UHGV virus genome: UHGV-1352889
Source of the DNA: a virus
Length of the DNA: 64,000 nucleotides
Direction: 5' to 3' (one strand)
The notes below the pieces were generated by a model. That model saw only the letters and a program-made list of their open reading frames with translations, did no database searches and had not been told where the DNA came from. A program made the position numbers and the translations under genes. Shown piece after piece: positions 3,225 to 56,164 of this stretch; position 1 is the first letter of the stretch; the number at the start of each line of letters is the position of its first letter.

Positions 3225-3262
3225 GTTCCCCCTGAAAAGTTACGCCGCCCTACAAAAAGTAT

Positions 3263-3290
3263 TTGACAAGATAAGAAAATCCGATAAACT
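3263..3290 (+). promoter_or_regulatory. early promoter copy 3: TTGACA-N16-TAAACT, hairpin 3302-3320 (GCGGGAG ACAAG CTCCCGC)
   Basis: Cassette identity. It is preceded by the ACGCCGCCCTACAA motif. Confidence 0.65.
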
Positions 3291-3349
3291 AAAATCATCC
3301 AGCGGGAGACAAGCTCCCGCATAACCTCAAACCTAAACAACACTATATC

Positions 3350-3733: not shown

Positions 3734-4264
3734 ATGAAGACTACAACTAAACCGGAAGTTCTTAAAGTATCGGACTATGCCCTTATCCATGACATTCCCA
3801 CCTATGCCCTCAATTACTTGGCGTGTGGGGAAGATGAAAGCCTCGCCCCTGATGACATTGAAAACATTGAAGAGTGGGAAAAAGACTACTATCTTGCCTA
3901 CCTCGTTGAAGGCCAGCAGGTTGCCCTTCATTCTGCCACTCCGGCTTTCGGTTCACCCTGCCCCTGCGTAAAATACTATGTCCTGCCTCGCTTTATGGGT
4001 GCTGTCCTATCATGGATAAATCCGGGTTGCCGGATGACTAACTGCTACCTTGAACTCAAGCTTACAGACGGTAGCCGGGTGAAGGTGTACCTGAAAGGAA
4101 ATCAAACCCTGCGTAGTACTATCCGCAACCTGATTGGCTTGGTAGAAATGGGGCATACTTTCACCGATATGAACGGCCACAATGTATCGCCCCGTCCCCG
4201 TGATATCGTTAATTTCTGGGTTCGCACGATGCACGGCCAAACACTGGCAACTGGAAGAATATAA
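3734..4264 (+). CDS. hypothetical early protein (176 aa)
   Basis: ORF with the leader AATAGAAAGCAACCATATT-ATG. Confidence 0.55.
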   Translation: MKTTTKPEVLKVSDYALIHDIPTYALNYLACGEDESLAPDDIENIEEWEKDYYLAYLVEGQQVALHSATPAFGSPCPCVKYYVLPRFMGAVLSWINPGCRMTNCYLELKLTDGSRVKVYLKGNQTLRSTIRNLIGLVEMGHTFTDMNGHNVSPRPRDIVNFWVRTMHGQTLATGRI

Positions 4265-4277
4265 ACCACTTGCGGCT

Positions 4278-4293
4278 TGTTCCACGTGGAACA
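4278..4293. promoter_or_regulatory. perfect 16-bp palindrome TGTTCCACGTGGAACA
   Basis: Read directly. It is followed by TTTAA, as is the copy at 352-367. Confidence 0.55.
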
Positions 4294-4434
4294 TTTAAAC
4301 CCCGGAACCCCCGGAACCCGTCAAATAACTCTAACCAAATAGAAAGAAAAAGTAGAAAGACAAAGGAATAATTCCCGCCCCCGGAATGCGGGGGATATCG
4401 GGTGCAACGGGTTCCGGGGATTCCGGGGTTTAAA
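4294..4434. repeat. long inverted repeat: 27-nt arms (TTTAAACCCCGGAACCCCCGGAACCCG / CGGGTTCCGGGGATTCCGGGGTTTAAA) flanking an 87-nt gene-less leader-like sequence
   Basis: Arms at 4294-4320 and 4408-4434 are complementary with one mismatch. The interior has an 18-nt exact match to 5913-5930 (CAAATAACTCTAACCAAA) and an internal hairpin at 4373-4396. No ORF follows. Confidence 0.7.
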
Positions 4435-4466
4435 GCTGAATAACTACGCCGCCCTACAAAAAGTAT

Positions 4467-4494
4467 TTGACAAGATAAGAAAATCTGCTAAAGT
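4467..4494 (+). promoter_or_regulatory. early promoter copy 4: TTGACA-N16-TAAAGT
   Basis: Cassette identity. It is preceded by the second copy of the 30-nt repeat. Confidence 0.6.
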
Positions 4495-4556
4495 ACATTC
4501 ATCAGCCACCGGAAGGGTGACAACTATATCAACAAAACAATAGAAAGAATAATACT

Positions 4557-4985
4557 ATGAAAGAAAATGAGATTGAAGTATGGGGAACTACGGAAGCGCA
4601 AGACGTTTCATCAAACGCCGTTAATAGCCAAGGTGAAAAGTGCCGCATTGTGCGCACCTATGACTACTACCCGGACGCGCAGGAGATTCATGAACACGTC
4701 AGTATTCAGAATGCCGTTAGCATTAAACTTGTAGAGTTTAACGCTTACAAGGTTAGGGACTTGATTGAAAATACAGAAAGGTTCCGTGCTCGTCTTTCCG
4801 ATTGCACAACCACCGTTCCTACGTGCGAGCCGAAAGCCGAACCGTATGTGAGAAGCAACTCTATTAGATTATTCCGGGAAAGAGCCGTGCAATATTATGG
4901 CACAAACTCTGATTCTTTTACCCTTTACACAGATAGAAACTTTTTGGATATTCCTATCCCCCTCGTTGTTCTCTTCTCAAAATAA
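4557..4985 (+). CDS. hypothetical early protein (142 aa)
   Basis: ORF with conserved promoter and leader. Confidence 0.55.
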   Translation: MKENEIEVWGTTEAQDVSSNAVNSQGEKCRIVRTYDYYPDAQEIHEHVSIQNAVSIKLVEFNAYKVRDLIENTERFRARLSDCTTTVPTCEPKAEPYVRSNSIRLFRERAVQYYGTNSDSFTLYTDRNFLDIPIPLVVLFSK

Positions 4986-5022
4986 ATAAGATACGCCTTT
5001 TGTCATACATATAAAAAAGTAT

Positions 5023-5050
5023 TTGACAAGATAAGAAAATCTGCTAAACT
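5023..5050 (+). promoter_or_regulatory. early promoter copy 5: TTGACA-N16-TAAACT, hairpin 5062-5079 (GCGGGG GACAAA CCCCGC)
   Basis: Cassette identity. Confidence 0.65.
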
Positions 5051-5123
5051 GAAATCATCCAGCGGGGGACAAACCCCGCAACAATAAACCAAACAACAAT
5101 AAACCGATAGAAAGAATAAGACA

Positions 5124-5873
5124 ATGAATACTACATCCGCAAACCTCAACAGTGCCGCCGCCATTAATGCCCTTACTGAACGGGCAAATGCCGCTATCGA
5201 TGCCGCCGTAGACAAGGTGCGTGACGACCTCATGAAGAATAATCAGAATGACTATGTCATCCCGGTGAAAAACATGGGGCATAACCTGAAACAGGTTGTC
5301 CGAGATAATGCCGCCTATGGTCTGGCCGCCCTTATTACTCACCGCATGCTGATGCTAGTGGCCGAACGCCTTCGCCAGTTTGAAGGCAAGGTCTATAACG
5401 TCCGAGTAGAACGGATGATGAATGACTGTCTGGCCGCCGCAATTACACAAAGCGTTGATGCGGACATTAAAATCCGAGCCTATATAGATAGAAGTCACTA
5501 CTCATGGTCGAAAGTGGTGTTTCATCATATCCTCCCCGGCATGTATGATAACATAAATATTTCCTTTAACTTTGACGTCAATGAGCTGACGCAGAGGCAG
5601 AAGCGGATTGTCACCGGAAGGGACATGGAGAAATTCATTGAAGGAATCTTCAATGATATGGTTCGTCTTGATACCAAGCTTCAAGAAATTGAGGATTCAA
5701 ACTACCGCCTTTGCAATTCCGACTACGTGTGCGCCTATTTTACACAAGCCGTTAAAGTGGAAGAGCAAGTGGAGAGCTTGAAGCAAGGCCTTAAAAACCT
5801 GACTGGTGCACAATACTATCGCTTCGACTATAACCACACAACCGTTTCCACCCTTCCCTCCTACAGGGCATGA
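5124..5873 (+). CDS. hypothetical early protein (249 aa)
   Basis: ORF with conserved promoter and leader. Confidence 0.55.
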   Translation: MNTTSANLNSAAAINALTERANAAIDAAVDKVRDDLMKNNQNDYVIPVKNMGHNLKQVVRDNAAYGLAALITHRMLMLVAERLRQFEGKVYNVRVERMMNDCLAAAITQSVDADIKIRAYIDRSHYSWSKVVFHHILPGMYDNINISFNFDVNELTQRQKRIVTGRDMEKFIEGIFNDMVRLDTKLQEIEDSNYRLCNSDYVCAYFTQAVKVEEQVESLKQGLKNLTGAQYYRFDYNHTTVSTLPSYRA

Positions 5874-5942
5874 CTTAAACCCCGCCCCAGCTACCCTATT
5901 TATTAGAACCCTCAAATAACTCTAACCAAACAATAAAACACC

Positions 5943-6272
5943 ATGAGAACCTACATTGAAAAATTAGGCAAGGAATACATTGAAGGCAGAAAAGAAAGTG
6001 GCAAGTCTCCCTTGCGGACCGGATTATACGGAGAGCGTTTGCGCTCCATGTCATGGAAGCGCACCCGACTTTTCTCCTATCAAACGCACGTTGCCACCGT
6101 CGACCGCCGAGGTAAAGTACTGTATATTACGACCAAAGAATATTCACAAACCACTACCCGGCAAATGCGGGATATGGAACGGCTCGCAAGTTGCAACGGC
6201 TTTCATATCGTACCTACCGAACGCGTTGAAGCCTATGCAAATATCCTTGAAGGACAGTATCATACATATTAA
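5943..6272 (+). CDS. hypothetical protein (109 aa)
   Basis: ORF preceded by the TTAGAACCCTCA motif at 5903. Confidence 0.5.
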   Translation: MRTYIEKLGKEYIEGRKESGKSPLRTGLYGERLRSMSWKRTRLFSYQTHVATVDRRGKVLYITTKEYSQTTTRQMRDMERLASCNGFHIVPTERVEAYANILEGQYHTY

Positions 6273-8431: not shown

Positions 8432-8968
8432 ATGTTAGAACCCAAAGACTATCAAAAATATATCGACGAGGACATCAACCCCGGTGACTACATTGTCAGA
8501 GAACTGGGTGGAGAGTATTACGTGGGGAGAGTAGTCGAGCTTTCTCCAAACTTCTACAGATACAAAGTCTTAAATGCTTTCCCTCTGGGTGAGGGGGTTG
8601 TCCGTCATGAAGAAGCAATCAAATGTTACCCTACACCTCTTCGGAAGTTTAAGGAGGGGGACGAGGTAATTTGTAGAGAACATATAGGTAAATGGACTGT
8701 AATGGAGGACGAGAAGGATTCCGTTCTTGTTGGTATTAAGGATAAATGTACAGGAACTATCAAAGCAGTAACCCCTGCCTCTCTTCTTCTCATCAGGCCA
8801 ATCGACCTGCATTATCGGTTCAGAGTTATCGACGGAGCTATTTGGGACTTCAAGAAGAACCAGTCCTTACGTGTCAACCCTTCATGTGAGGGAACAACTG
8901 AAATGGAACGTCTCTGCAATCTTCTGAATGAATTAGACAGAAACGAAGAAACTTCTCTTGACAAGTAA
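8432..8968 (+). CDS. hypothetical protein (178 aa)
   Basis: ORF with GGAGG 45 nt upstream. Confidence 0.5.
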   Translation: MLEPKDYQKYIDEDINPGDYIVRELGGEYYVGRVVELSPNFYRYKVLNAFPLGEGVVRHEEAIKCYPTPLRKFKEGDEVICREHIGKWTVMEDEKDSVLVGIKDKCTGTIKAVTPASLLLIRPIDLHYRFRVIDGAIWDFKKNQSLRVNPSCEGTTEMERLCNLLNELDRNEETSLDK

Positions 8969-8994
8969 TAAAACCCAGATACTATTATCCGCAC

Positions 8995-9597
8995 ATGAAT
9001 AATACTACAGAACCAAACAAATTGAGCCTCGATAATATTCAGGAAGAGGTAGCCCGCATTCTCACCGAACCGAAGTCTATCATGTTGAAGGAAAGACTGC
9101 AACGGGAGTGGGATGCAGTCCCCGCATTCAACCTGCCCATCGACGCGCCTGCGGAGGCGGTTGCCGAGAAGGCTCTTGAACTGGGGGACTACGCCGCCAA
9201 CATCTTTGATATTGAACCCCCGCCGCTGGCGGGAGTTCAGTTCATCATGGCAGAAGTCGCCGAGAACCTCGTCACTGTGAAGGAATACATTGCCTTCATG
9301 CAGGAGCTTGAGAACCCCGGCAAGGCGTGCAATATCTTTACAGATTCCCACGTCATGATTAAGGCACTCGTCCTCTTCATGGCCATTCACCTCTTGGTAG
9401 CGTATGCCAGTCAGAACGACCCGGACCGCATTGATGAAGAGAAGGGAGGCATCTCCGCATTCCGTCTCTTCTCCGTGGCGAGCAATGTAATTTCCATGAA
9501 CCTGATGGAACAGTCTACTCTTACCTTCGTAGATAAGTCGGAGCTTGCCGAGAAGGAAGCTAACGCCCGTAAAATTATTCTGCCTCACGAAGCATAA
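8995..9597 (+). CDS. hypothetical protein (200 aa)
   Basis: ORF. Confidence 0.5.
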   Translation: MNNTTEPNKLSLDNIQEEVARILTEPKSIMLKERLQREWDAVPAFNLPIDAPAEAVAEKALELGDYAANIFDIEPPPLAGVQFIMAEVAENLVTVKEYIAFMQELENPGKACNIFTDSHVMIKALVLFMAIHLLVAYASQNDPDRIDEEKGGISAFRLFSVASNVISMNLMEQSTLTFVDKSELAEKEANARKIILPHEA

Positions 9598-13864: not shown

Positions 13865-13872
13865 AACAAAAC

Positions 13873-13901
13873 CCCCGGAAGGAAATATCTTCCGGGGTTT
13901 T
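13873..13901. terminator. bidirectional intrinsic terminator at the convergence of early plus-strand and late minus-strand transcription
   Basis: A 9-bp GC stem CCCCGGAAG/CTTCCGGGG with loop GAAATAT is followed by TTTT on the plus strand and preceded by AAAACAAAAC, which gives U-rich runs on both strands. Confidence 0.65.
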
Positions 13902-14390: not shown

Positions 14391-14996
14391 TTATTTCAAC
14401 CAGCAGTCAGATTCGATATCGAAGTGAGCCTTTACGGATAGGTCGCAACCGCATAAGGTACAATAGAGAGGGGCCTCCCCGTTGGTCAGGTCTGCCCGCC
14501 CGGAAATTTTTTCCTTGAGGAATTTGCGGCCAGCTCCTTCGGCTCCACATGTGGCGCACCCCTGCTTCTCTAAATCCGGGGGAGGCGTAGAGGTAGCATA
14601 CGGACAGGAGGAACAGATAGCATAGCGGCGGCGTGCTTCTGCCTCGTCTACAAATCTGTGTCCCCGCCGATACCAGAGAACCATAGTACCGAAGAAGGCC
14701 AGTACCTTCTTGGCACTCATGGGTTCATACTCCCTCCATTCAATCCCCTTATCCCCGCAGGTAGTACAGTATTGGGGAGGGAGAGAGGAACAGAGTTCTG
14801 ATTCAAAGAGCGCAACCTGAAAGGGTTCTCCATTATTCATGAAGAGACGGGCAACGGATTTGCGAAGTTGTTCCAGTGAACCCGCGGAAACCTTGGTTCC
14901 CTTGAGCCTGACACTCATGGATTCAGGGACAACAAACTTCCAGCCACCCGGAGGTGTAACCATAACATGATTGGGGACTATACGAAAAGAGGGCAT
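14391..14996 (-). CDS. Cys-rich hypothetical protein (201 aa)
   Basis: ORF with several CxxC pairs (CTTCGDKG, CSSCPY, CATCGAEG, CTLCGC). Confidence 0.5.
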   Translation of the reverse strand: MPSFRIVPNHVMVTPPGGWKFVVPESMSVRLKGTKVSAGSLEQLRKSVARLFMNNGEPFQVALFESELCSSLPPQYCTTCGDKGIEWREYEPMSAKKVLAFFGTMVLWYRRGHRFVDEAEARRRYAICSSCPYATSTPPPDLEKQGCATCGAEGAGRKFLKEKISGRADLTNGEAPLYCTLCGCDLSVKAHFDIESDCWLK

Positions 14997-15046: not shown

Positions 15047-18000
15047 CTACTTCATCCGATTATGAATTTCCTCTGTACTCAATGCCCCATCAATCGGAAT
15101 GCTACCCTTCTGCATGAGGTTGATAATGAGTTGCTTCTGCTCTTCGATTAGGCGTTTGCCCTCGTCCGTGGTATTAGACTTCTGCAATTCACGGTTGAGC
15201 TTCGCGATAGCTTCACGTCCTGCTTGCGGACTAATGACGTAGGGCATGATGCCCTGCATGGCCGCGCCGTAGGTCTTGGCACTCATACCGGAACTCTCAA
15301 TCACGGAGTCCAGAACTTCCGAACGGATGGACGGGTCAAGCATGTTTGTAATTTCCGTAACGAACCGGACACTATTGACTAGCTTGGTGAAATTCTTCAC
15401 GGCATCCGCGGTTTCCACGGCTTCCATGAGTTCCACATCCATCCCGGATTCCATTCTCTTGTAGAAGTCCGGACGCAGAATGCTCATTCGCTTCGACTTA
15501 GTGACCGCCGCGTTGGCATTCTTTAACCCGGCGGCAAGGGCTTCGGTCAAATCCTTTGGACGACGGAGACCAGCACCGAACGTTTGCAACAAGTATGCCG
15601 CGGTACTCATGTCAGGTGTATCGCTAGCAAATTGTTTACCAGTCTTGACTGCCCAGCCGTAGAAGGGAATCTTTTTATTGGCAACCGTCGCAACTCGTTC
15701 AAGGGCTTGCCATGTATGTCCACTGCCAAACGAGGGGTTCAGTCCTGCGGCCAACAGGATTGCGTTGCCGACTGCCGGGAGAACGTTGACGCTTTCATCA
15801 CCGGAGAGGCTATGCTTGTAATTGAAGTCTTCCTCATTAAACAATTCAGAAGCGGCATTCAGAAGGAGGGATTCTTCGAGCACCGTATTTTCCAGCAGGT
15901 TTTTCAGTTCGGCAACCTTGTTCATCCCCCACTTGTCCACATCCATATCCATGAAGAGGCTGGGCAGGGTTTTGGCTAACACCTTGATGGTCTTGAACGG
16001 GTTCATGTATTCAAGGTTCAAATACTCGAACTCATGCCGCTTCATATCTATGATGCCAATCAAGTCCCCGAACTTATCATAGTCAGGAATTAGCCCACTG
16101 TCTGCCAGCTTCCTCATGACTTCCGCGTCGTCAATGATTTTACGGTCATCGTCATCTCCCAAGACACTGGTGATAATCTGTCGGGCAAACAAAGAAGAGA
16201 CCGCAGAGGTTGCAGAAATAGTTCCTACGGAACCAGCGGCGCGGAGGATAGCGCGTCCCAAGAGGTAAGCCCCCTCCTTCTTCATGCCGTTATTGATAGC
16301 CCACACACCATCTACCCCTTCGCCTATGGCGTGGCCAAGGTTGTAGACTACGGACTGGGCGGTATGGTACTGGAACATGAAGAACGGAGCCATAACTATG
16401 TTCAGGATTTTCACCCACGAAGGAGTACGCGAACCCGTGGGGAGCAAGCTCTTCACCATGTGGGCAGTATACCTATCCACATACGCATTCCAACTCTGGT
16501 CAGTCTGGCTCGCGTCAAGGAGTATCTGGTCCCGCGCATTGGGGTTGGCCTTGCCTTTCGCCCGTGCCAGTTGTACCTTTAATTGGGTGTCGGCAATCGC
16601 TCTCTGGTTAGTGAAGAGAACAATCTTGGCCGCCGCGTCCGGCAAGCCATAGGCGAAGGCCATCGTTTTGATGGGCCATGCTACCACTTTGCCCGCCATC
16701 TTGGCGGCATCCTTAGCCACCTCGCCCTTCGTCCGTTCCTGTTTCTCGTTCAGAGCTTCGGCGAGTTTGAAGAAGGAATCTTCATTCACTTCTTCGAATT
16801 CTCCTGCCATCTTACTGAACTCGTCAGACTTCCAGACGTTGCGCAGGAACTCCCCTTGACCTGCGTCCAGCAGACCAAGCTCTTGCCAGTAGCGAATCTT
16901 CTCGTTGTACCTGTCTTCCGCGGCCAGCAGTCTATCCGCGGAAGCCTGTGAACCAAGGTCCTTGCCTTTGGACAACCGCCGCAACTTACGCAACTGAAGC
17001 CAGTCCCCGACAAGGTTTGCGATGTCTTTACTCCCCGTGAATGGAAGTGCACCCGCATGGGTCATTTGAGCTACTGTACCATATAAGTTACGTAACGTGG
17101 AATTAGGACTAGCTATTAAGACAGAAAGGTTAGCCAAGCTACCCGCCTTACTCCCCCATCCTTGACCCTTGCCGGACTTCTGCCAGTACTTGCGCACCTT
17201 CTTATAGTCGTCCGTCCGACTGTTCATGATGTCGTCGCTCGGCCTGTAGATGTGATAGATGGCGTCGGCTACATCCTTGTCGGCATATAATCCGTTCAAC
17301 GCATTCTTCGTATTCTTCAAGGAGATTTCCACCATGTCGGGGGTACGGTTCGTGCTAGTCGCGGGTACGACTACACCCTGTGCCTTGAGCACGGTGGCGT
17401 ACTCGTCAGCAAGCAACTGGTTCACGGCAATCTTCGACTGCATGGATATGGTATTCTGCAATGTCCCAATGGCATCCCCAATGGTGAGGTCGCTAAGTTC
17501 ATACATAGCTTTCCTCTGCCATTCGGGCAAGCGTTTCCGCTGGGCCAGCGCATCTTCATTCGTCCTCTTCTTGGTCAGCACTTCGTCGATGGCCTTCATG
17601 GCATCGCTCACCGCAAGACGGGAGAGTTCCGGATATTGCAACACTTTCAAGTCGGTAGCGGAGATGACGTTGCCCATATTGTTTGCCCTCATGAGAATGC
17701 CCGCCTGACCCCGGAGAAGATTGAGCGTCTTGTCCAGTCGTTCTGCGGCATTCATATTCGGAGCGTTCCATATCTGGTCGATGGCCGAAGTCGGGATAGT
17801 GGGGATGGCCTTGTTCACTTCGGAAGCCACGGATGCCGGGGATTCAAGGCCGCCGATTTTGTCGGCAATCGTGTTTCCCGGAAGGCTGGAGAAGACATCG
17901 GCGAGGAAACTATCTCTGGCTTTCATGTCCAGAGTTTCTTTCATCTCTGCCATCTTTGACTTCGTGCGATAGTCTGCCTGTGCTATCATGCTCATGGCCT

Positions 18001-21000
18001 TGTTATACATGGCACTGATGTTGTGGCCGTCCCGCAGGTCCGCAAGCATTTGAACCCTGCCGAAGTTGTTCTGAATGAAGTCAAGAATTTCTCTGGTCCT
18101 GTAGTTCTTGGCTACACCTTCGAACAGGAGTTTATAATTCGAAGAGGCTCCCGGGGGAGCTGACACCAGCGGAAGTTTCAACTCGTCATGGAACGCGGCC
18201 AATGCTTGCATGTTGTCCAGCACTTGGCTTATGTTTTCGGACAACTCTGTCTGGTGCGCTTCGGCATGAGCGATTGCGGCTTCCTGCAACAACTTCGTCA
18301 GGCCATCATACTTCTGTGCCATCTCCCCGTTGGGATGTGCAATGATGTCCTTCATCGTCCGGGTGAAGTCTCCGGCATGGCGACCTACGGCCATGTAGGT
18401 GCGATGAAGATAATTCATCTCCGCGGCGTTGTTAGCCATACGGCTATCCCCAATGAGCTTGGCAATAGAGATTTGCGTCGCGGCAATTTCTTTACGGGAA
18501 TCGGCGATGACATTGTAGACCAGTTGACCTACAACCCCTTGTGACAGAAGCCATTGTTCCGCGGCATCCCGCTTAGCCATATACTCTGCCTGTTTCTGAC
18601 GGCGTGCATCGAGGATAGCGTTGTCCCGTTTCAGCCACACGGAACCAGCAGGAGTAGTTACGCCAGCACGAGTTACACCCGCTCTCTTTGTTGCAGCGTA
18701 GAAATCATCGTTGGCTTCCCGGATGATTTGTTTAGCTTCGGCCCGTGCCCTAGAGATGTCCTGAATCATAGGAGCAATGGCGGGGTGGTTTGTACTCTCC
18801 GCATAGAGGTAGTCGTTGCGAAGGTTGGACCACCTGTCCAGAAGTTCATCCATAGAGAAGGGACTGTCCACCTCGTTAATCATATCCGCGAGGTAGTTCT
18901 GCGTATCGCGGGCAAGACTAAAGTAGGAGGTTTCCAGATTGGCATCCCCTGTCGCGGAGATACGAGAGCCAAGGTCGGAGAGCGATTTGTGAATCTGCTG
19001 GGAGAGCATGGGGAGAGCCACCGTCTTGTCCAGCATGGCCCCATATCCCTTGACGCTCATGTCTTTAATCCGGCGCATCATGTCATTGATTTCCAATCGC
19101 CCTTCACTATTAAGCGCAAGGGAGTTGGCTAGACGCACCGCTTCCGCGTGCCTATTGACGGCATCGGTAACGGTCTTCTTAGCCAACGCGATACGGAAGT
19201 CGCGGGTCTGTTCGTGCTGGCGAACTTCTGCTTGGGCCTCTGCGTTAATGCGTGCAACGGTTTCAGGGTCAATGTCGTTGTCCATATTCCCCGACATGTC
19301 GAGAATGGACTTGCTCCATTTCTTTCGCGTGGCGGCATCCCAGCCCAGACTATCCGCACGGCGTTGAAGCATATCACCGATTTTGTCGATGCGTTTAATA
19401 CTGCGCTCGTATGCCGCATTCACGTTGGTCCTTTGTTCCAGCACAATCAGCTTCTGTTCCTCGGACTTAACATTGATGCCAGCTTTGTCCCAGCCCTTAG
19501 ACACGCCTTGCCATACGTTCTTAACACTAGTCACCCAGTTCCCGGCATTCGTACCGATAATCTCTGCACCCAGACCGAAGGACAGTCTTTGGGTCATGTC
19601 GGTCTCATAGGCCAACGGGTTGAAATAATCTACCTCATGGCTCATGGTGTAGTCCGTATCGTCTACTTTCCATGATGGGGTGCGAGGCATATCGAACCAC
19701 TTGCCGGGGGTTATGTCCGCGACGCGGTCCACATAGGAATCCCATTCAGCCGCATTCTTGGCGGCGGTGGTTCCGTCCATGTCGTCCGCAGTTTGCCGCA
19801 CATCTCTAATCAAATCCTTAAGCCATTCAATGAGGCGCACGTGAACGGGTCTCCTGCCCCCAGCCGCTTCGGCATAGCGAGCCAAATCCGTGAGGGTTAC
19901 ATTGTCTCCGCTCACCTCCGCAATCATGAAGTTCATGACAGGATTGGAGAACGCAACACTGGCAAATTCGTCCGGGCCACGGAGACCATAGTTGAGGTCG
20001 GAGGCAAGCGCGGCGATGGCATTCATCTCATTGATGTCCACGCTAGCTTCATACATAGCGGTGAGGCTATCAATGAATTGATTATAGTTCTCCGCAACTG
20101 CGCTTCTAATCTTGTCCATCCGCTGGGAGTAGTCCGCGTTAGTGGCACGAAGATGACGGTCAATGAGGTGGATGGCCTCATGCAGTACTGTTCCCGTTAC
20201 GCTCTCAATCGCATTGTCCCGGTCCATGTACAGGTCAATGACACCACCGACAAGCTTCCCGTCTGTTCCGTTCATGTAGGTGATACTGGCGGGGGAGGCT
20301 ATATTGGCAGGAGCATTGGTGGCTCGGATAGCCACGTCCAAACCAGCGGCATGCAATGCGCGGAGCACTCCGTCAATGGCCGCGGCCTGTGCAGGAGATG
20401 CCTTGACGCGAAGGTCCGAAAGGATGCCGTAGGCATTTACGCCCGTCCCGTCAGAGGGGAGATTGAGAGCGGAGACCCTATCCCCCCACTTGGTGCTGGG
20501 TGTCCCTCCCTCGCCCATGTTGTACATGCTTGCGTGCGGAGAGACGACAATGGTTTCTCCCGTGTTGCTCGTAACCAGCGGGGCATTAATCCCGGTCATC
20601 TCGTTCAAGGAGACGAGCTTGGTTCCGCGGTCAAGAGGTGAACCGGATGAAAGCCATGCCCCAGTGTTGGGGTCGAACGAAGTAATGGCGGCATCCAAGG
20701 TATCCACGGTTTCCACGGCTTCGGGGGTAACTACTCCCGTATCTACCATGTTAGTGACGGAGGCAATGGCTTGGTCCCTCTCCTTCCGTGCCGTGAGTTC
20801 CGGGGATTCCGTGGTAGCCGTGGGTTCCGTGGGCACCGGGGATTCCTTGGTAGCCGCGGCTTCCGTCAATCCGTTAATAACGTTAATGGCGGCATCGAGG
20901 TCTTCATCTCCTGTAGTAAGGATGGACAGGTCATCGTCTACTTCGATAACCTGAACCCGGTCTCCCATAGCATCAAGGGCTTCCGAAAGCATGGTGCGCA

Positions 21001-24000
21001 TGGTGTCGAGGTTTTCCTTATTTGGGAATGACAGGGTATTGGGCAGGTCGTTAATGGCTTCTGCCATGAATGAGCTTGCCGCGGCACTGCCCTCGTAGGT
21101 ATATATTTCGGAGGCCCGTTCCACTAGGTTGCGGAACTGGGTGAAATTGCTGATGCCCATACGGGTTGCGCCTTCCACCCATGCCTTCCGGGTTTCGTCG
21201 GAGACAACCAGACTTTCATGGGCAATGGATTTGTCCACCCATTCGCGGGCAACTTCCGCGGCATCCCCCTTCTCCCCGGCAATCTCGATAACCTTCTTTC
21301 CGGTTTCTACCAAGCTTTCCGGCACATTGTTTTTGGTAATGGCTTTGCCCGTTTCCTCGATGATGTTGCTCGCATCTTTCGTAATATCCGGTAGCATGGA
21401 AGTAGCATCCTTTACATCAAGGGTGGGAACGGCTTCGGTTTGGAAACGTATGTTCCCTTCCCCAGCTAACTGGCTACCAACGTAGCCGCCGATACCCCCA
21501 AGGAAAGCAATCTTTATAGCACCGCTAATCACTTGGTCAGTAGTGGCAATAGAGGATTCGGAGATTTCTCCGTTCTTCACCAGTTCAGTAAATGCCCATT
21601 CTTGGAATTCGTCTGCCAGTTCTTCGGTGGCTCCTTCCACTGCGGCCTTGCTCGTGCTGTACAGATAGGAAGCAACGGAAAGCGTCTTCTCCTTGGTAGT
21701 CATTTCAGACCACGGCTTGCTTCTCCATCTGGCCATCTTCTGTTCAAGGGTTTGGAATGGAGATTGACCGCGAAGGTTTTTAGCTCCAACAATCTTACGC
21801 ATGTAGGAATCCACACCTGCGCGGTTGTTGATAAGCGTACTGCCAGCGGAGACCAGAGCCGCACCAAAGAGGGCACGCCTACTGGCAATGCTCTGTGCCC
21901 GGTTCGTGTTCTCGGCAGTCGGTTCCTTCCCTTCCATCTCCCTGTCATAAATGGTATAGAAGATGTCGGAGTAAGCATTCGGTGCAACCTGCGAGATGAT
22001 GGTAAGGTTTACCCCAGCACCAGCTCCCGCCCTTTCAAGGCTCAAGGCCGCAAGGTTATTAAGGTTACGCTGAATAGTTCCACTCAAACGTCCCGCCAAT
22101 CCCGGACGGGCGGCAGGGACCAAAGCTTCTGCCCGCTTCGCTACGACGTTAGCCGTTGCCCTCGCGAACTTGGTCAGAGCGGTACGTTCCAATGCGCGGC
22201 CAGCAAGGCCACCGATTTTACCAGCCCCCGCGGTTGCCACCATTTGGTAGCCGAGGTTAGCGATTTCCGCAGTATAGTCTGCAAGGATGTTGCCTCGAAC
22301 AAGTTCAGCTTCCGCTTCCTGTTTTTTGTTCAGCTGGTCCCAGAGGGTGCGGGTATGTTCCATCGCCGCACGACTGCCGACTGCATTCTGCGCAAAGAGA
22401 AGAGCACCATAGGCGGCCCCTGTCCCAAGGTCGATGGCTTTGTGCGTGCCTATCTGGAACCCACGGAGAATAGGATTGATGTGAGCCTGTCCTTTCTCCT
22501 GCCACGCGGAGAGAATGTCCTCGTCGCTCTTGCCCGCTTCCTTCTGTTCATTGTAGAAATTCTTGAAGGAAAGGTACTTGTCCAGATACTTCATGCTTTC
22601 GGTCCAGATAGGGTAGACCCGCATGCCGAAACCAAGCCACGTATCATGGAGCGTTCCCAGCGTTTCATCTAATGCAATGTTGTCCTTCACAAGTTCCTGT
22701 GCGGATTTCGTGCGGAGGTTCTGGAACTTTTCAATGGTGCGATTAATGAGACCTTCGTCCGCGCCGCTAGCACGGAGAGCCTCAATGCTCTTGTCCATCA
22801 GCTTGTTGTCGTAGAGAGCATTGGGGTTCAGTTCGAGAGTGGCGTTCGTATCAACTTCCTTGGTGTGCGGGTTGTACGCAAAGAGACTGCCACGGCCTAC
22901 GCCCAAGTCACCCATACGTGCGGCATGGGAGAGGGAGTTGAGGGCATCGCGAGTATTTTCAATATGGTATTGGGCCATGTATTCCTTCAACCGTTCGGGA
23001 CCTACATCAAAAGAGGGACCCCCCAGTACGCCATACTCCCATGTGCCACGCCTCGTTCCCTTTCTCCACTCCATTGTACTTAATGGGTCAGAGGTCTTGC
23101 CCACACTATCTCCCGGCTGGAGGGTAAGCACATCCGCAATTTGTCCCCCCGTGCTTCGGTAGTTAGCCATTGCGCCCTTGACCGCATCCATGAGAGTGCC
23201 TCTCGGCGTAGCCTTGGCGACATAACCCTGAATCAGATTGGTTACTCCCGCTTGGTACAGGATGGATTTGGGAACCCCCGGAAACCTTGTAGCCACGGCT
23301 TCCAGTATAGCCTCACTCATGCCAATCTGTTCATCGGTCTCGAAGGTCAGGGGGCGGTCCTTCTTGCGACGAAGGTCCTTGGCAAGAACTTTGGCCCTTG
23401 CACGTATTGCGTCCATGTCAGCATTGGGGACTAAAGACAGAAGGGTAGAGGCCGCGGCTTCCGGATTGAGAATCGCGTCGCGAAGTTCGAGGTAGGGAAG
23501 GCCAGTGTAGTCTTCTTCGAGCCGACGTACCATTTTGTCTGCCGCCTCTATCTGTTCACGAATCCTATCCTCAACAGGCTTTTCTTTCTTTGAAGTTTGA
23601 TGCCTGGGGATATAGATATCACCGTTCCGGGAAAGGTAATCCCCGTAGTCGCGGACAAGCCGGAACATTTTGCTGGGAGACTTAGAGAGGTTGGCGAGTT
23701 CAGCAAAAACATTCCCAGTAAATGAAGGTGCTGAATCAGAGAATTCGCCAACGCCAAGCTCCCCCACGTTCGTCTGGCTGGGGGTTTTCTTCTGCACGTT
23801 CTCCGTCGAAGCGGCTCGGTGCTTATTATAGAGAGACTTAGCGGCACGATAGTTGTCAATGTCTTCGCGCCTAATCGTATTGATGATGCTTTCTATTTCC
23901 TCCGCAGTGTAAGCAATGGGTGCGCTCTCGATGGCTTCTGCTTTAGGTTTACCTGAATAATCTAGATGCGAGTTGAGGTAATCCTTCCGGGCCTTTTCCA

Positions 24001-24691
24001 TTGTGCTGGCAATGGATTTGGCCACCGCCTTTGCGTTACGGTTTCTGTCCGCGGCAATGGCGAGGAACTTTTCCGTTACGACGGGGTTCCCGTCCTCTCC
24101 CATGCCGAAGCCAAAGCGGGATAAGAATGCGGGTTGCTGGGGAGAAAGTTCGGAGGAAGAGACTGCGACGATGCCCGTGTTATTCGTAAGCTTTTTAATG
24201 GCGTCACTATCACCACGAGCGGCGGCCTTCAAATCAACCCGCGCATCTTCTCCGCTGTCTAGGTAGTTCTTTATGTAGTCGATTCCCTCAAAGGTGAACC
24301 CACGGTTTCCTTTGTTCAAGACATCAACGTCAGCCTTTTCCGCGGCGGTTTTCCATTGTTGTTCCGTATGGGCGCGGGTTTTTGTTTCCCATTCTACGTT
24401 ACGTGCGCGGTCTGCCTGTTCAATCTGTTTCTTCTGAAAGTCCTCAATGGACTTAGAGACATAGTCATCAAACTCCGCGGTAGCTCCTGCGGCTTTCTCC
24501 GCGTGGGTCTGTTTCTTTTCCGCTAACCTTTGCTCGCGGTCTAGTGCTTTCTGTGCTCTGTCTTCCTGTTTCTGTTTTTGCGTCTCTTGCCACGTGGCGT
24601 GCCTTTCTGCGGCTCGCTGTTCACGCGCGATACTGCTTGCCGACGTCGGAGCGAAGTCGGACATATTGGCGGTACTAAAGTCAATGGCCAT
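15047..24691 (-). CDS. giant virion protein (3214 aa) with HExxH zincin-like motif; function unknown
   Basis: One uninterrupted 9.6-kb ORF sits in the structural gene train. VLHEAIHLIDRH is encoded near 20155-20184, with a Glu 23 aa downstream. Charged coiled-coil regions and T/E/P/S-rich linkers are present. Confidence 0.7.
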   Translation of the reverse strand: MAIDFSTANMSDFAPTSASSIAREQRAAERHATWQETQKQKQEDRAQKALDREQRLAEKKQTHAEKAAGATAEFDDYVSKSIEDFQKKQIEQADRARNVEWETKTRAHTEQQWKTAAEKADVDVLNKGNRGFTFEGIDYIKNYLDSGEDARVDLKAAARGDSDAIKKLTNNTGIVAVSSSELSPQQPAFLSRFGFGMGEDGNPVVTEKFLAIAADRNRNAKAVAKSIASTMEKARKDYLNSHLDYSGKPKAEAIESAPIAYTAEEIESIINTIRREDIDNYRAAKSLYNKHRAASTENVQKKTPSQTNVGELGVGEFSDSAPSFTGNVFAELANLSKSPSKMFRLVRDYGDYLSRNGDIYIPRHQTSKKEKPVEDRIREQIEAADKMVRRLEEDYTGLPYLELRDAILNPEAAASTLLSLVPNADMDAIRARAKVLAKDLRRKKDRPLTFETDEQIGMSEAILEAVATRFPGVPKSILYQAGVTNLIQGYVAKATPRGTLMDAVKGAMANYRSTGGQIADVLTLQPGDSVGKTSDPLSTMEWRKGTRRGTWEYGVLGGPSFDVGPERLKEYMAQYHIENTRDALNSLSHAARMGDLGVGRGSLFAYNPHTKEVDTNATLELNPNALYDNKLMDKSIEALRASGADEGLINRTIEKFQNLRTKSAQELVKDNIALDETLGTLHDTWLGFGMRVYPIWTESMKYLDKYLSFKNFYNEQKEAGKSDEDILSAWQEKGQAHINPILRGFQIGTHKAIDLGTGAAYGALLFAQNAVGSRAAMEHTRTLWDQLNKKQEAEAELVRGNILADYTAEIANLGYQMVATAGAGKIGGLAGRALERTALTKFARATANVVAKRAEALVPAARPGLAGRLSGTIQRNLNNLAALSLERAGAGAGVNLTIISQVAPNAYSDIFYTIYDREMEGKEPTAENTNRAQSIASRRALFGAALVSAGSTLINNRAGVDSYMRKIVGAKNLRGQSPFQTLEQKMARWRSKPWSEMTTKEKTLSVASYLYSTSKAAVEGATEELADEFQEWAFTELVKNGEISESSIATTDQVISGAIKIAFLGGIGGYVGSQLAGEGNIRFQTEAVPTLDVKDATSMLPDITKDASNIIEETGKAITKNNVPESLVETGKKVIEIAGEKGDAAEVAREWVDKSIAHESLVVSDETRKAWVEGATRMGISNFTQFRNLVERASEIYTYEGSAAASSFMAEAINDLPNTLSFPNKENLDTMRTMLSEALDAMGDRVQVIEVDDDLSILTTGDEDLDAAINVINGLTEAAATKESPVPTEPTATTESPELTARKERDQAIASVTNMVDTGVVTPEAVETVDTLDAAITSFDPNTGAWLSSGSPLDRGTKLVSLNEMTGINAPLVTSNTGETIVVSPHASMYNMGEGGTPSTKWGDRVSALNLPSDGTGVNAYGILSDLRVKASPAQAAAIDGVLRALHAAGLDVAIRATNAPANIASPASITYMNGTDGKLVGGVIDLYMDRDNAIESVTGTVLHEAIHLIDRHLRATNADYSQRMDKIRSAVAENYNQFIDSLTAMYEASVDINEMNAIAALASDLNYGLRGPDEFASVAFSNPVMNFMIAEVSGDNVTLTDLARYAEAAGGRRPVHVRLIEWLKDLIRDVRQTADDMDGTTAAKNAAEWDSYVDRVADITPGKWFDMPRTPSWKVDDTDYTMSHEVDYFNPLAYETDMTQRLSFGLGAEIIGTNAGNWVTSVKNVWQGVSKGWDKAGINVKSEEQKLIVLEQRTNVNAAYERSIKRIDKIGDMLQRRADSLGWDAATRKKWSKSILDMSGNMDNDIDPETVARINAEAQAEVRQHEQTRDFRIALAKKTVTDAVNRHAEAVRLANSLALNSEGRLEINDMMRRIKDMSVKGYGAMLDKTVALPMLSQQIHKSLSDLGSRISATGDANLETSYFSLARDTQNYLADMINEVDSPFSMDELLDRWSNLRNDYLYAESTNHPAIAPMIQDISRARAEAKQIIREANDDFYAATKRAGVTRAGVTTPAGSVWLKRDNAILDARRQKQAEYMAKRDAAEQWLLSQGVVGQLVYNVIADSRKEIAATQISIAKLIGDSRMANNAAEMNYLHRTYMAVGRHAGDFTRTMKDIIAHPNGEMAQKYDGLTKLLQEAAIAHAEAHQTELSENISQVLDNMQALAAFHDELKLPLVSAPPGASSNYKLLFEGVAKNYRTREILDFIQNNFGRVQMLADLRDGHNISAMYNKAMSMIAQADYRTKSKMAEMKETLDMKARDSFLADVFSSLPGNTIADKIGGLESPASVASEVNKAIPTIPTSAIDQIWNAPNMNAAERLDKTLNLLRGQAGILMRANNMGNVISATDLKVLQYPELSRLAVSDAMKAIDEVLTKKRTNEDALAQRKRLPEWQRKAMYELSDLTIGDAIGTLQNTISMQSKIAVNQLLADEYATVLKAQGVVVPATSTNRTPDMVEISLKNTKNALNGLYADKDVADAIYHIYRPSDDIMNSRTDDYKKVRKYWQKSGKGQGWGSKAGSLANLSVLIASPNSTLRNLYGTVAQMTHAGALPFTGSKDIANLVGDWLQLRKLRRLSKGKDLGSQASADRLLAAEDRYNEKIRYWQELGLLDAGQGEFLRNVWKSDEFSKMAGEFEEVNEDSFFKLAEALNEKQERTKGEVAKDAAKMAGKVVAWPIKTMAFAYGLPDAAAKIVLFTNQRAIADTQLKVQLARAKGKANPNARDQILLDASQTDQSWNAYVDRYTAHMVKSLLPTGSRTPSWVKILNIVMAPFFMFQYHTAQSVVYNLGHAIGEGVDGVWAINNGMKKEGAYLLGRAILRAAGSVGTISATSAVSSLFARQIITSVLGDDDDRKIIDDAEVMRKLADSGLIPDYDKFGDLIGIIDMKRHEFEYLNLEYMNPFKTIKVLAKTLPSLFMDMDVDKWGMNKVAELKNLLENTVLEESLLLNAASELFNEEDFNYKHSLSGDESVNVLPAVGNAILLAAGLNPSFGSGHTWQALERVATVANKKIPFYGWAVKTGKQFASDTPDMSTAAYLLQTFGAGLRRPKDLTEALAAGLKNANAAVTKSKRMSILRPDFYKRMESGMDVELMEAVETADAVKNFTKLVNSVRFVTEITNMLDPSIRSEVLDSVIESSGMSAKTYGAAMQGIMPYVISPQAGREAIAKLNRELQKSNTTDEGKRLIEEQKQLIINLMQKGSIPIDGALSTEEIHNRMK

Positions 24692-26672: not shown

Positions 26673-29564
26673 TTAACTGGGTGGATAAATGGTTACTTTC
26701 TTGCACATCATGCCCCCGTTCCACGGGGATGCGTAATAGGAGGTCACGGGTTTCCAATCTGTGTGGGCAGTCCCCGGAAAGTTTGTATTAAACCCGCCGG
26801 GAAGCCACTTGGCGTCCTGACTGCCAATGGTTACGGATATAGTCAACGGGCCGTGGAGGCATGCGGGCAGACGGTAATCGCAAAGCGGCGAAGAGAAATA
26901 CCCACTGTTCGTCGTGAATTGTACCGACGTCCCAAGACCCCAGCCTTTAGGCCATGTACCATCAGGGGAGAAGGCTTCCTCTACCACGGCGGTGCAGGGG
27001 CCGGAGTAACTGTCCCTCAACATCTTGGTCTGCGGGAAGTACTTGCCTTCCTGTCTGCCAGAGCGGTCGGGCCTCGTATCCCACGGAATCCACTGAACCG
27101 AACCGAACACGGCGGGGAAACTGTAGTTCATCGTCGTGGTATATTTTTTGTAGTACCCGATTCCCGGAATCTGCATGTAACTATCTACGGCGTAACAGGG
27201 GTTCACCCACTGGCGCAGGATGACGCGTTGAATCTTGTCGCCCGTCGTGACCTTGAACGTATTGCCTCGGAGCTGACATATAGTGATTCCGAACTGGAAG
27301 TACGGGAACTTCGCCCCATCATAGGTCAGGGTAATCTTCTCGGCAACCTCGGCATTAAGGATATAGTCCCCAACACGGTATTTAGTCTTCGCGCCGTAGG
27401 ATGTATTGACCGTAGGTTCCGGCTGGTTAGGCAGTCCTACATTGCTAGTCGTGACTACCTTGATATCAAAGACCTTTGTCCCGTTGAGGAAGATAGGGAT
27501 AACTCCATTGATGACGCCGCAGTAGGGGTTAGAGACATGTACGGTCATGTTCAGCTGGCCGTTCTCCACGTCAAAATATACGTTGCCAATACCGTTAGGC
27601 AGTGTACCTATGGTGAATCTCATCTCTGGGTTATATCCATCGTCTCGCTTGTAAATGGCCGCAGTATCCGAGACACCCAGCGGGAACACCCACGGAGCAC
27701 TCGTTACATCCTCCGCATAGAGGGTATCCCGGATAATCGCCTCCATCCTAATCTTGTACCATCCGTTCTGTGTCATCCACGGACCATCGGGGTTAGGGGC
27801 GTTGTAAAAATAATCTGCTTTCATCGTGCCTGGGGACTGAACTCTGGGATAGCTGTTCTGGATATATATGTTCCACCAGCGGACCCCCTTAAACCGGATG
27901 CCCACATTCATGCCACGGTCAGCATCTTGGTTGTCCATACTAAACGAGCCGAGTAATGCGAAAGTATTCGCGAACTGGGGATAATTGGGGTCGTTCCATC
28001 CATTGATGAGGGACATGTTTTGGAGCATACCCGTTGCTGGGGATGAATCCTCAACCGCAGTAAAGTCAGAAAGGTTATATCCGATTCTGGTCCACGGCGT
28101 GTCGGGGATAGTAATGGCTACCTCGGTTTCCGGGGTTTCCAGCTTCCGGGCATAGTAGGCATTACCCACGGCATCCGTGTATTTGGTGAATCCTTCCCTC
28201 TGCCAGTCTGTGTCGAAGTCAGTGCTCGGATTGGGCACAATCTTCCGCAGTACCGGATAAACTTGGTTCGTAATTCGGTCAAAGGAGGATTCCCAGAACT
28301 CGTCAATCTGGTCGTAGGTGGTGCAACTCTTTCGCGTTTCCTTGTGGCTATATCCCTCACGGACTACTACAGAGGAATCGACGCGCCATTGGCTACAGTT
28401 TTCACTGGGGTCCGGGGGGTCAATCGCAGGGACGTCGCCATTCGCCGTCCAGTCAACAGACTGGCTAGTCGTCACGGTCGTATTGATGCACCGGACAAAA
28501 CGGGAATCCGGGTTGCAACAATTGCCGGAGAGGGTGTTCTGTTCCTCCTTTTCCGCGATGCCGCTGTTCCGTTTGTACATGGATACGAGGGTGTACATTT
28601 GCGTACTCGGATAACTGCCCTTGTCCCAGCCCGCACTAACGGGCCTATTGTCCAGTTCAAGCGTGGGCATGTGGGGAATGCGGGCCTGTCCCGGTTCCTT
28701 CCCTCCACCATCGACGGGCCAAAGCGGCGCGGCCCATACCTCTCTCGATAACTTAATTGCAGTCTGTGCCACCCATTCAGATTCGGGCAGGGCCGTTCCC
28801 GGACCCCCTTCATCCCACACCGTATCTCCCTTCCGCCAAATGTTATAAGGGATGAACTCTTTAACCACCGGGCCGGGCAGGGTCTTGTACACGCGTACCA
28901 CCTTACGAAAATACTTTCGCAGGTGTTCTTCTCCAAACTGGACTACTTCTTCAAATACCAGCTGGGCATCGTAGGCCGTGTAGAAGTGCTGGTCATAGAA
29001 GTCAGGGTCAAGCTTTTCGTTGCTGGGGTCAAACGAGCCAAGGGGAAGCGGGGCATACGCGGAATCCAAGGGTTCCACCCACTCCCGTGTAATCTCGTAA
29101 AAGTCTTTCAGCTCGTCGGTGTCTGCATCGGGTCCCATGAACTTACCCGTAGCGGCAGTATCCTTTAAGGTATAGCCGTCACGAATCTTCTTCATGTCCT
29201 GAATGTTATACCGGAACTGCTGTTCCGGCGGGACCATGTAGTAGAAACGATAAACGTGCTGTCTCGCCGCCTCGTTGACGGGTTCGACATGCACAAGAAC
29301 TGCATCCCGCATGAACGGAAGGAAGGTCGTACCCGCAGTAGGTACGAACGGTGTTCCCAATTCAATGGTAATCTCGCTGGGATTCTTGGCAATCCTCTCA
29401 ACGAAGAACATCACGTTTTTTACCACCGGAGTGGGAAAGTTAATTATCGGCTCACCCATTGGCCTGTCAGGACTGAACCCATTGCGCCACGAGGAATCCG
29501 TGGTTCCAATGGGTATTGTCGGAGGCTGTGGAGTGGAGGCCGTGGTATTAGGAATTAAGGCCAT
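26673..29564 (-). CDS. large structural protein (963 aa), tail-associated candidate
   Basis: Long ORF in the operon. The antisense ORF 26652..27956 is judged a shadow ORF. Confidence 0.5.
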   Translation of the reverse strand: MALIPNTTASTPQPPTIPIGTTDSSWRNGFSPDRPMGEPIINFPTPVVKNVMFFVERIAKNPSEITIELGTPFVPTAGTTFLPFMRDAVLVHVEPVNEAARQHVYRFYYMVPPEQQFRYNIQDMKKIRDGYTLKDTAATGKFMGPDADTDELKDFYEITREWVEPLDSAYAPLPLGSFDPSNEKLDPDFYDQHFYTAYDAQLVFEEVVQFGEEHLRKYFRKVVRVYKTLPGPVVKEFIPYNIWRKGDTVWDEGGPGTALPESEWVAQTAIKLSREVWAAPLWPVDGGGKEPGQARIPHMPTLELDNRPVSAGWDKGSYPSTQMYTLVSMYKRNSGIAEKEEQNTLSGNCCNPDSRFVRCINTTVTTSQSVDWTANGDVPAIDPPDPSENCSQWRVDSSVVVREGYSHKETRKSCTTYDQIDEFWESSFDRITNQVYPVLRKIVPNPSTDFDTDWQREGFTKYTDAVGNAYYARKLETPETEVAITIPDTPWTRIGYNLSDFTAVEDSSPATGMLQNMSLINGWNDPNYPQFANTFALLGSFSMDNQDADRGMNVGIRFKGVRWWNIYIQNSYPRVQSPGTMKADYFYNAPNPDGPWMTQNGWYKIRMEAIIRDTLYAEDVTSAPWVFPLGVSDTAAIYKRDDGYNPEMRFTIGTLPNGIGNVYFDVENGQLNMTVHVSNPYCGVINGVIPIFLNGTKVFDIKVVTTSNVGLPNQPEPTVNTSYGAKTKYRVGDYILNAEVAEKITLTYDGAKFPYFQFGITICQLRGNTFKVTTGDKIQRVILRQWVNPCYAVDSYMQIPGIGYYKKYTTTMNYSFPAVFGSVQWIPWDTRPDRSGRQEGKYFPQTKMLRDSYSGPCTAVVEEAFSPDGTWPKGWGLGTSVQFTTNSGYFSSPLCDYRLPACLHGPLTISVTIGSQDAKWLPGGFNTNFPGTAHTDWKPVTSYYASPWNGGMMCKKVTIYPPS

Positions 29565-56094: not shown

Positions 56095-56164
56095 GAATGG
56101 AACGTGCTCCTTTTTTACCCGCAATGCGGTGCTACGGGATAAACCCGTCAGAGCCGGGAGGGGG

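Follow-up and report, generated by a model that had tools for sequence, protein, structure and literature searches.

The stretch of DNA considered here, UHGV virus genome UHGV-1352889, is a window of 64,000 nucleotides that covers most of the genome, approximately 70 kb, of an uncultured human-gut phage, and the subject of this work is a non-coding inverted-repeat element at positions 4294-4434 of that window. The phage has no DNA similarity to any deposited phage, and protein searches against cultured phages gave only remote similarity, for PolA and the terminase; it belongs to no described group. Known protein families match almost no protein of the window, the recognisable genes being those for an NAD-dependent ligase, ThyX, a family-A DNA polymerase, an intein-containing helicase and a P22-like large terminase. 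The genes between about 1.2 and 13.9 kb run rightward and the remaining genome runs leftward. In the rightward, early part, the element starts 30 nt past the stop codon of a gene for a protein of 176 aa with an N-terminal DUF6926 domain (3734-4264, + strand; Pfam PF21977 at 9e-9) and ends 33 nt before the -35 hexamer of the next promoter.

The two arms of the inverted repeat (4294-4321 and 4407-4434) are 28 nt long, 96% complementary and 85 nt apart, with a single mismatch in mid-stem (C4308 versus A4420). An earlier reading of the letters alone, referred to below as the original prediction, had described complementary arms with one mismatch, which is borne out, except that it made them 27 nt long. 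The repeat is the longest and best inverted repeat with a spacing of at most 150 nt in the entire window. On the + strand, the left arm consists of TTTAAA, two copies of CCCCGGAAC and CCGT, with three repeat copies in the relative L003, and the right arm consists of ACGG, GTTCCGGGG, ATTCCGGGG and TTTAAA. In RNA this gives a G+C-rich stem of 21-28 bp, composed of two inverted copies of a 9-nt CCCCGGAAY repeat and flanked by AAA and UUU. The predicted folding energy of the + strand RNA is -70.4 kcal/mol, compared to -43.9 +/- 3.7 for shuffled sequences (z = -7.1; 0 of 200 shuffles as stable), and that of the - strand RNA is -78.2 kcal/mol (z = -8.1). The loop is an unstructured A-rich stretch followed by a stable inner GC hairpin, which had also been foreseen and lies at 4373-4402 (+ strand) in the minimum-energy fold (CCCG-CCCCCG, GAAUG loop, CGGGGG-AUAU-CGGG, thus 4+6 bp with an AUAU bulge); it is the least variable part of the element. 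A scan against Rfam gave no match at the gathering score, the best sub-threshold score being 24 bits against a cut-off of 80, and a scan for tRNA and tmRNA found none. Adjoining the left arm is a 16-bp perfect palindrome, TGTTCCACGTGGAACA (4278-4293), of which a second copy is located near the genome end (353-368) and of which the central two bases differ among relatives (CG, CA or TG).

Between the left arm and the inner hairpin the element carries what looks like a gene leader without its gene. The 18-mer CAAATAACTCTAACCAAA at 4322-4339 is identical to 5913-5930, in the leader of the gene at 5943 (5943-6272, + strand), as the original prediction had pointed out, and the match can be extended to 25 of 26 positions with one gap (4314-4339 versus 5906-5930), the copy at 5906-5930 being the functional paralogue of this orphan segment. 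In some relatives the variant CCAAATAACAA is common to the loop copy and the copy in the 5943 leader, which indicates exchange between the two. The orphan leader is followed by an unstructured polypurine stretch (4340-4372, + strand), which is the most variable part of the element. The runs that were earlier noted as resembling ribosome-binding sites are found here as two UAGAAAGA boxes (4339-4346 and 4352-4359) without a usable start codon. The same box is present 9-10 nt 5' of the ATG of six early genes, is not found 5' of late genes, and is complementary to the extreme 3' end of Bacillus-type 16S rRNA. Two mechanical open reading frames (ORFs) overlap the element. A 33-aa frame starting with TTG (4270-4371) is disrupted in relatives by indels of 19 and 5 nt, and a 15-aa frame starting with ATG (4386-4433) begins inside the loop of the GC hairpin, lacks a ribosome-binding site and crosses the paired right arm. 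Neither is credible and the element is non-coding, so the earlier statement that it contains no ORF is essentially right.

The early region is served by five near-identical sigma-70-type promoter cassettes, all rightward, at 1352, 1857, 3263, 4467 and 5023. The cassette that follows the element (4467-4494, + strand) has the form TTGACA-16-TAAAGT with a TG. The longer repeated unit, AAAGTATTTGACAAGATAAGAAAATCTGCTAAAnT, occupies 1349-1385, 1854-1890, 3260-3296, 4464-4500 and 5020-5056, and in each case a small 5' hairpin and a leader rich in A and C come after it. Directly at the right arm, and overlapping its end, is a post-gene module, TTAAAGCTGAATAACTACGCCGCCCTACAA (4430-4459, + strand), which is an exact 30/30 copy of 2853-2882 and marks a recombination joint exactly at the outer edge of the arm; the shorter module GAATAACTACGCCGCCCTACAA is repeated at 2861, 3234, 3674 and 4438. 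The joints of gene gain, loss and translocation in relatives fall in these promoter and post-gene modules. No site resembling a sigma-70 promoter occurs on either strand between 4264 and 4340, and the earliest + strand terminators are located at 13873 and 14018, with none before 13873. The element thus lies between the DUF6926 gene and the next promoter, with upstream promoters facing it and no terminator in between, from which we infer that it is transcribed.

Relatives of the phage were retrieved with the DUF6926 protein (23 viral contigs), with the ligase (25 contigs) and with a 19-nt junction pattern, which gave 35 human-gut metagenome contigs, one CRISPR array and five chance hits. The resulting data set on variation comprises 43 distinct haplotypes, with 24 distinct variants of the element. 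Each of the 43 haplotypes has one copy of the element, invariably located immediately 3' of the DUF6926 gene; the same junction is present in all 23 relatives found with the DUF6926 protein, and the element in 19 of the 21 ligase-anchored contigs that extend far enough upstream. Its absence from relatives had been named as part of what would refute the original prediction, and the opposite was found, since about 90% of the related genomes have it. A 'filled' version, with a gene inside the loop, was not present among some 60 related contigs, and an exact 17-mer from the inner hairpin is confined to this clade among 2.9 million viral contigs. What follows the element does vary. In 18 of the 43 haplotypes the 3' neighbour is a promoterless gene (MKDISELH...), which in the window is located at 2451-2840; in 20 only the leader of this gene remains, as an orphan, together with a promoter cassette; and in five, including the window, the promoter cassette follows directly. 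A stem-loop followed by a promoter is thus found in 25 haplotypes. On the other side of the element, most relatives have a 19-nt segment, CCGGGGAATCAAAATTGTT, which is missing from the window and from about eight other haplotypes (site 4276-4277; 4700-4724 in relative L001). The segment contributes a third GTTCCGGGG unit that is able to pair with the left arm, with 9 bp around the palindrome (-28.8 kcal/mol), as an alternative structure formed before the right arm is transcribed.

The sequence diversity within this set is unevenly distributed. It is 0.034 for the whole element, 0.005 for the inner hairpin, 0.014-0.026 for the core arms and 0.037 for the polypurine stretch, which exists in three variants, one of which has lost a box through a 5-nt indel. 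At third codon positions the ligase gene has a diversity of 0.087 and the DUF6926 gene of 0.18, so that the value for the element is 3-5 times lower. The inner 21-22 bp of the stem are intact in all 24 variants, and a duplex of 21-28 bp is retained in each of them, compared to the approximately 22 bp, or two helical turns, of double-stranded RNA that an RNase III site needs. In the relative L087 a single C-to-U change in the inner hairpin preserves the pairing as G·U. At least seven indel or replacement events have occurred near the element, with breakpoints at or outside the outer edges of the arms and none within the core stem, a distribution that is suggestive but not decisive.

The design of the element is not unique in this phage. 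A simpler hairpin on the - strand at 34962-35012, consisting of TTAAAC and two copies of CCCACGGAAC, combines a stem of 17 bp with a normal loop of 17 nt (-52.8 kcal/mol, z = -6.9). It comes after a small hairpin and leads into a U-rich tail and then a TTGACC promoter, and as such it is a terminator-promoter composite. The structure has been retained by 23 relatives, among which the copy number of the 9-mer differs. This hairpin and the element have a common 'TTAAAC-(YCCNCGGAAC)2' design and a common order of small (palindromic) hairpin, long GGAAC hairpin and promoter, the element differing by its 85-nt loop. In the same leftward cluster, a canonical terminator at 56066-56110 (- strand; GGCCATCCC...GGGGTGGCC followed by UCUUAUUUUU) abuts a TTGACC promoter, and terminator-promoter composites are shown to be the normal intergenic design there. 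Furthermore, a genuine bidirectional terminator at 13870-13900 has a stem with exactly the sequence of the outermost 11 nt of the arms (AAACCCCGGAA / TTCCGGGGTTT). The tail of the element, UUUAAAG or UUUAACA, scores -3.58, which is in the top 2.7% of the 15-mers of the window (mean -2.10), between the values for the 35-kb hairpin (-2.68) and for canonical terminators (-4.27 and -5.42); a scan for consensus terminators did not call the element.

The other parts of the element can also be traced to non-coding modules of the phage itself. The left arm has the form (CCCCGGAAC)n-CCCGT, a sequence that is tandem-arrayed in the terminal non-coding region of the relative L018. The right arm and the adjacent interior (4392-4434) are the reverse complement of positions 268-288 of the window, with 90% identity over 21 nt, in a terminal non-coding repeat region (239-560) that is a source of 9-mer arrays, of the palindrome and of the GGGATAGCGGGTGCAATGGGT homologue. 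Since the arms, the palindrome, the leader and the 3' joint each have copies elsewhere in the phage, the element is a composite of the phage's own non-coding modules.

The terminal region deserves a short description of its own. Dense non-coding repeats occupy positions 1-590, which probably represent a genome end because many related contigs break there. They include units of about 15 nt of the GGACTTAAAAGTTAG type (1-200), two copies of GAAGCCGTT (239-258), (CACAAC)n (289-326), the palindrome (353-368), three copies of CCAAAAGATA (377-410), and (GGGGGAACC)4 arrays around two copies of GTGTGCCGTCTCTCTATATATA (427-557). The unit sequence, period and copy number of these repeats diverge strongly among relatives (L014, L018). 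The right-end non-coding region of L014, outside the window, contains at 1013-1118 an inverted repeat with 16-bp perfect arms (TTGACACCTCTGTTAG / CTAACAGAGGTGTCAA) 74 nt apart, which enclose GTTCC-type repeats (ATTCCGTGGATTCTGGGTTCCGTGGGTTCCGGGG); the layout is as in the element, and the arms are different.

Our interpretation, which we hold tentatively and with slightly less than even confidence, is that the element forms an RNA hairpin by which a transcript boundary is set within the early operon, through partial termination and/or cleavage by RNase III. Transcription by host RNA polymerase from the sigma-70-type promoters at 1352, 1857 and 3263 would run through the element, since no terminator lies between, and the stem would then form in the mRNA. 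Part of the transcription may be halted by this stem, with its three U residues, and a duplex of at least two helical turns is a likely substrate for the RNase III of the host. A cut by this enzyme would separate the upstream message, leave a protective structure at its 3' end, and insulate it from the next unit, which in the 18 haplotypes with the promoterless gene would depend on read-through. The orphan leader may in this scheme be a by-product or relic of the shuffling of gene cassettes, rather than the functional core. Of the possibilities that had been listed with the original prediction, the complex terminator agrees with the terminator-identical outer 11 nt, the AAA-stem-UUU arrangement, the sister hairpin at 35 kb and the promoter 33 nt further on, and the recombination scar agrees with where the contents of the loop come from, its leader being a paralogue of that of the 5943 gene and an orphan of the same kind having arisen by deletion in 20 relatives. 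Both are probably partly true: most likely, the structure is derived from a terminator, is leaky, and carries the leader of a lost gene in its loop.

A considerable number of observations weigh against a function as transcript boundary. The 85 nt between the arms contrast with the loops of 3-10 nt that are typical of intrinsic terminators, the stem is followed by only three U, which are able to pair with the 5' AAA, and termination cannot be efficient because a promoterless gene comes next in 18 of the 43 haplotypes. With respect to cleavage, G-C pairs at certain stem positions can block E. coli RNase III (PMC3867540), which may not be the enzyme of the host. The analysis across related phages that had been proposed as a check was positive for folding, with the z value of -7.1 given above, and uninformative for covariation, for which there is too little variation: 27 of the 38 pairs are invariant, and the only pair that varies on both sides is U-A in eight variants, C-G in three, U·G in one and C·A in 12; this central pair is mismatched in 22 of the 43 haplotypes. 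Transitions led to G·U in the + strand RNA in four events and in the - strand RNA in two, which is not a significant difference. The quality of the stem is not correlated with what is located downstream, nor with the presence of a promoter there. Moreover, the orphan leader next door is equally invariant in 20 haplotypes, so the low diversity of the element is no proof of selection. Finally, the element is dispensable in two lineages, which do not have it: in L020/L058 it was removed by a clean deletion between two 8-bp TTCCGGGG repeats, one of which is inside the right arm, and in L011/L060 there is a different short spacer instead.

Several of these points would be equally expected if the element were a functionless by-product of recombination in a hyperplastic early region, formed by inverted duplication of a terminal 9-mer block and subsequent loss of a gene between the copies, and persisting because it is harmless. 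We regard this as the most serious of the alternatives, though a less likely one than a transcript boundary. All components are traceable, namely to the L018 array, to 268-288 in inverted orientation, to 5906-5930 and to 2853-2882, and a gene deletion that leaves an orphan leader is directly visible 10 nt downstream of the element in the 20 haplotypes mentioned. The outer six pairs have two alleles per side which occur in all four combinations, and together with the frequent central mismatch and the clean deletion in L020/L058 this speaks for such a by-product. On the other hand, about 90% of the genomes retain the element, the core stem of 21-22 bp is always intact despite the many indels nearby, and the inner hairpin is nearly invariant (pi = 0.005). 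However it arose, a GC duplex of 28 bp cannot be without effect on RNase III or the polymerase when it is part of an mRNA, and the same design recurs at 35 kb in a clear terminator-promoter setting.

The transcript-boundary interpretation also gains from comparison with known systems, the element being most likely a variant of familiar phage transcript-boundary structures in an unfamiliar phage. In T4-type phages, PeSL cassettes are non-coding stem-loop/promoter cassettes located between small early genes in a hyperplastic region, with the breakpoints of indels and gene swaps in the cassettes (PMC2839356, PMC4122927), and such terminator/promoter stem-loop cassettes mediate shuffling (PMC4122927). 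The five promoter cassettes and the gain and loss of genes at conserved modules in the present phage are similar. The hairpin, however, is single-copy, apart from its simpler relative at 35 kb, and not part of every cassette: it is the promoter and post-gene modules that are repeated here, and not, as in the many dispersed copies of PeSL, the stem-loop. The loop of 85 nt with an orphan leader is a further difference, and the phage is unrelated to T4.

A second comparison is with the RNase III sites in the early mRNA of T7, such as R1.1 (PMC3867540). These are also intercistronic hairpins in a polycistronic early transcript made by host polymerase, with a duplex of at least two helical turns and, as in many copies of the element, a single central irregularity. 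The ideal substrate of E. coli RNase III has 22 bp, and such sites are present on most T7 transcripts (PMC3867540). The layout of the genome is T7-like as well: host promoters at the left end precede small early genes and a ligase, and about 20% of the way along the genome there is an early terminator. The sites of T7, however, are five in number and compact, each about 60 nt long and having a defined internal loop, whereas here there is one near-perfect GC stem of 28 bp with an 85-nt loop, for which cleavage is predicted. The similarity to bidirectional intrinsic terminators concerns the layout of AAA plus CCCCGGAA... and ...TTCCGGGG plus TTT, the position at a gene end and before a promoter, and the outer stem that is identical to the phage's own terminator at 13870-13900; the differences are those of loop length, number of U residues and the promoterless neighbour discussed above.

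A role of the element as double-stranded DNA, in which GGAAC units at 9-bp spacing and the palindrome would bind the phage or host protein that also binds the terminal arrays, with a function in replication, packaging or regulation, is in our opinion improbable. GGAAC/GTTCC pairs favour a 9-bp spacing in all four orientations across the window, including the arrays at 429-549, the palindromes at 354 and 4279 and the 35-kb hairpin, and the palindrome and the 9-mer vocabulary are common to the genome end and the element. The interior at 4322-4372 is A+T-rich between G+C-rich repeats and could serve as an unwinding region. Such an arrangement recalls an iteron-type array or origin, but the units are not constant, and relatives have hypervariable terminal arrays (GAACCCGTT, GAAGCCGTT, GGAACCC 7-mers and GGGGAATCATGGATACC), which is more like slippage-prone simple repeats than like specific sites. 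The pentamer itself alternates between GGAAC and GGAAT in 17-18 of the 43 haplotypes, the palindrome is missing from relatives of the L009/L022 type that keep the element, and no recognisable DNA-binding family was found among the early proteins searched. Extrusion of a cruciform is made unlikely by the 85-nt spacer. Palindromes of the type GGAAC-N4-GTTCC or GTTCC-N4-GGAAC also occur in coding regions, at 29211-29228, 48000-48015, 60510-60525 and 42723-42736 (e.g. CCGGAACTGCTGTTCCGG), and at exactly 9-bp spacing there are three palindromes per orientation, compared to about 0.24 expected per spacing.

Somewhat less probable still is a processed small RNA of about 110-130 nt, which RNase III would excise and of which the boxes would titrate the 30S subunit or an early-leader factor, or in which the polypurine stretch would act as a 5' stabiliser. 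The two UAGAAAGA boxes, specific to early-gene leaders, are indeed presented in an unstructured loop that is closed by a long stem. There is also an analogy with SD-like (Shine-Dalgarno-like) sequences without start codon, which stabilise RNAs of B. subtilis, including an early RNA of phage SP82, as cited in PMC7509114. These STAB-SD and polypurine 5' stabilisers (cryIIIA, SP82; as cited in PMC7509114 and PMC2358910) have in common with the loop a purine-rich SD-like sequence without start in an untranslated part of an mRNA, adjoining a likely processing site. The boxes of the element, of which ribosome binding is putative, lie in a closed loop instead of near a free 5' end, and they belong to the most variable part, one of the three variants having lost a box. 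The structured small RNA and the processed decoy leader that had been put forward in the original prediction find no own promoter, no Rfam family and no informative covariation, and the leader is simply explained as a deletion relic. The specific version in which an excised 'leader decoy' of about 110-130 nt titrates 30S subunits or an early-leader factor and thereby times the shut-off or protection of early messages is quite unlikely and has no positive support in this analysis; if true, it would be more interesting than a transcript boundary.

Readings of the element as a miniature inverted-repeat transposable element (MITE) or as a coding micro-gene (the 15-aa ORF at 4386-4433), prompted by the 28-nt terminal inverted repeats, the 'empty site' in L020 and the ATG-to-TAA frame in the right half, are largely rejected as very improbable, since each genome carries a single copy, at a fixed locus, and no copy outside the clade turned up in 2.9 million viral contigs and a metagenome collection, since the 8-bp direct repeat in L020 is located within the right arm and not on the outer sides of the inverted repeats, which indicates slippage deletion without target-site duplication, and since the ATG is in the loop of a GC hairpin without a ribosome-binding site and its frame runs through the paired arm. 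A CRISPR-repeat mimic was rejected because the arms are inverted and not direct, and an N4-like hairpin promoter for a virion RNA polymerase because the early promoters are of the sigma-70 type and because, in the ORF for 3214 aa (15047-24691, - strand), a search for certain RNA-polymerase motifs found none and neither Pfam nor PHROG gave a match. This ORF also holds several GGAAC-type 9-mer pairs, for example at 20795-20841. The helicase gene (58246-60672, - strand) is split by an intein with a Hint domain and a LAGLIDADG homing endonuclease.

Two further observations concern the host. One of the metagenome contigs, OGUL01034523.1 (L073, 1000 nt), is a CRISPR array with a type I-C-like repeat, GTCGCACCCACACGGGTGCGTGAATTGAAAC. 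One of its spacers targets the junction of left arm and leader (protospacer 4308-4341, with TTC as protospacer-adjacent motif), with two mismatches in the window and no more than one in 49 retrieved loci. Another spacer targets the gene at 5124-5873 (position 5653 of the window). A search for an exact match to the repeat, aimed at identifying the host, gave none; repeats with one mismatch were found mostly in Treponema genomes, plus one metagenome-assembled genome of the Oscillospiraceae, a similarity that is suggestive only and at best a tentative host lead. The other observation concerns translation signals. Promoters similar to TTGAC(A/C)-N16/17-TATAAT end 5-7 nt before an ATG at 14960-14996, 41440-41471, 52950-52980 and 55995-56022 on the - strand and at 8958-8995 on the + strand, which implies leaderless mRNAs, and late genes are generally without any Shine-Dalgarno sequence, early genes having the UAGAAAGA box. 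These signals are a useful constraint on the host.

If the element is only a scar, its value is chiefly descriptive. If it does act as a transcript boundary, it would be the sole one inside the early operon of a widespread lineage of uncultured gut phages. It would also be an example of how a regulatory hairpin can grow, in which a simple terminator stem, built from a 9-mer prone to slippage, takes a lost gene's leader into its loop. The element would then also provide a handle on the expression programme of the clade, through a step in metatranscriptome coverage at 4294-4434 and as a test of cassette shuffling.

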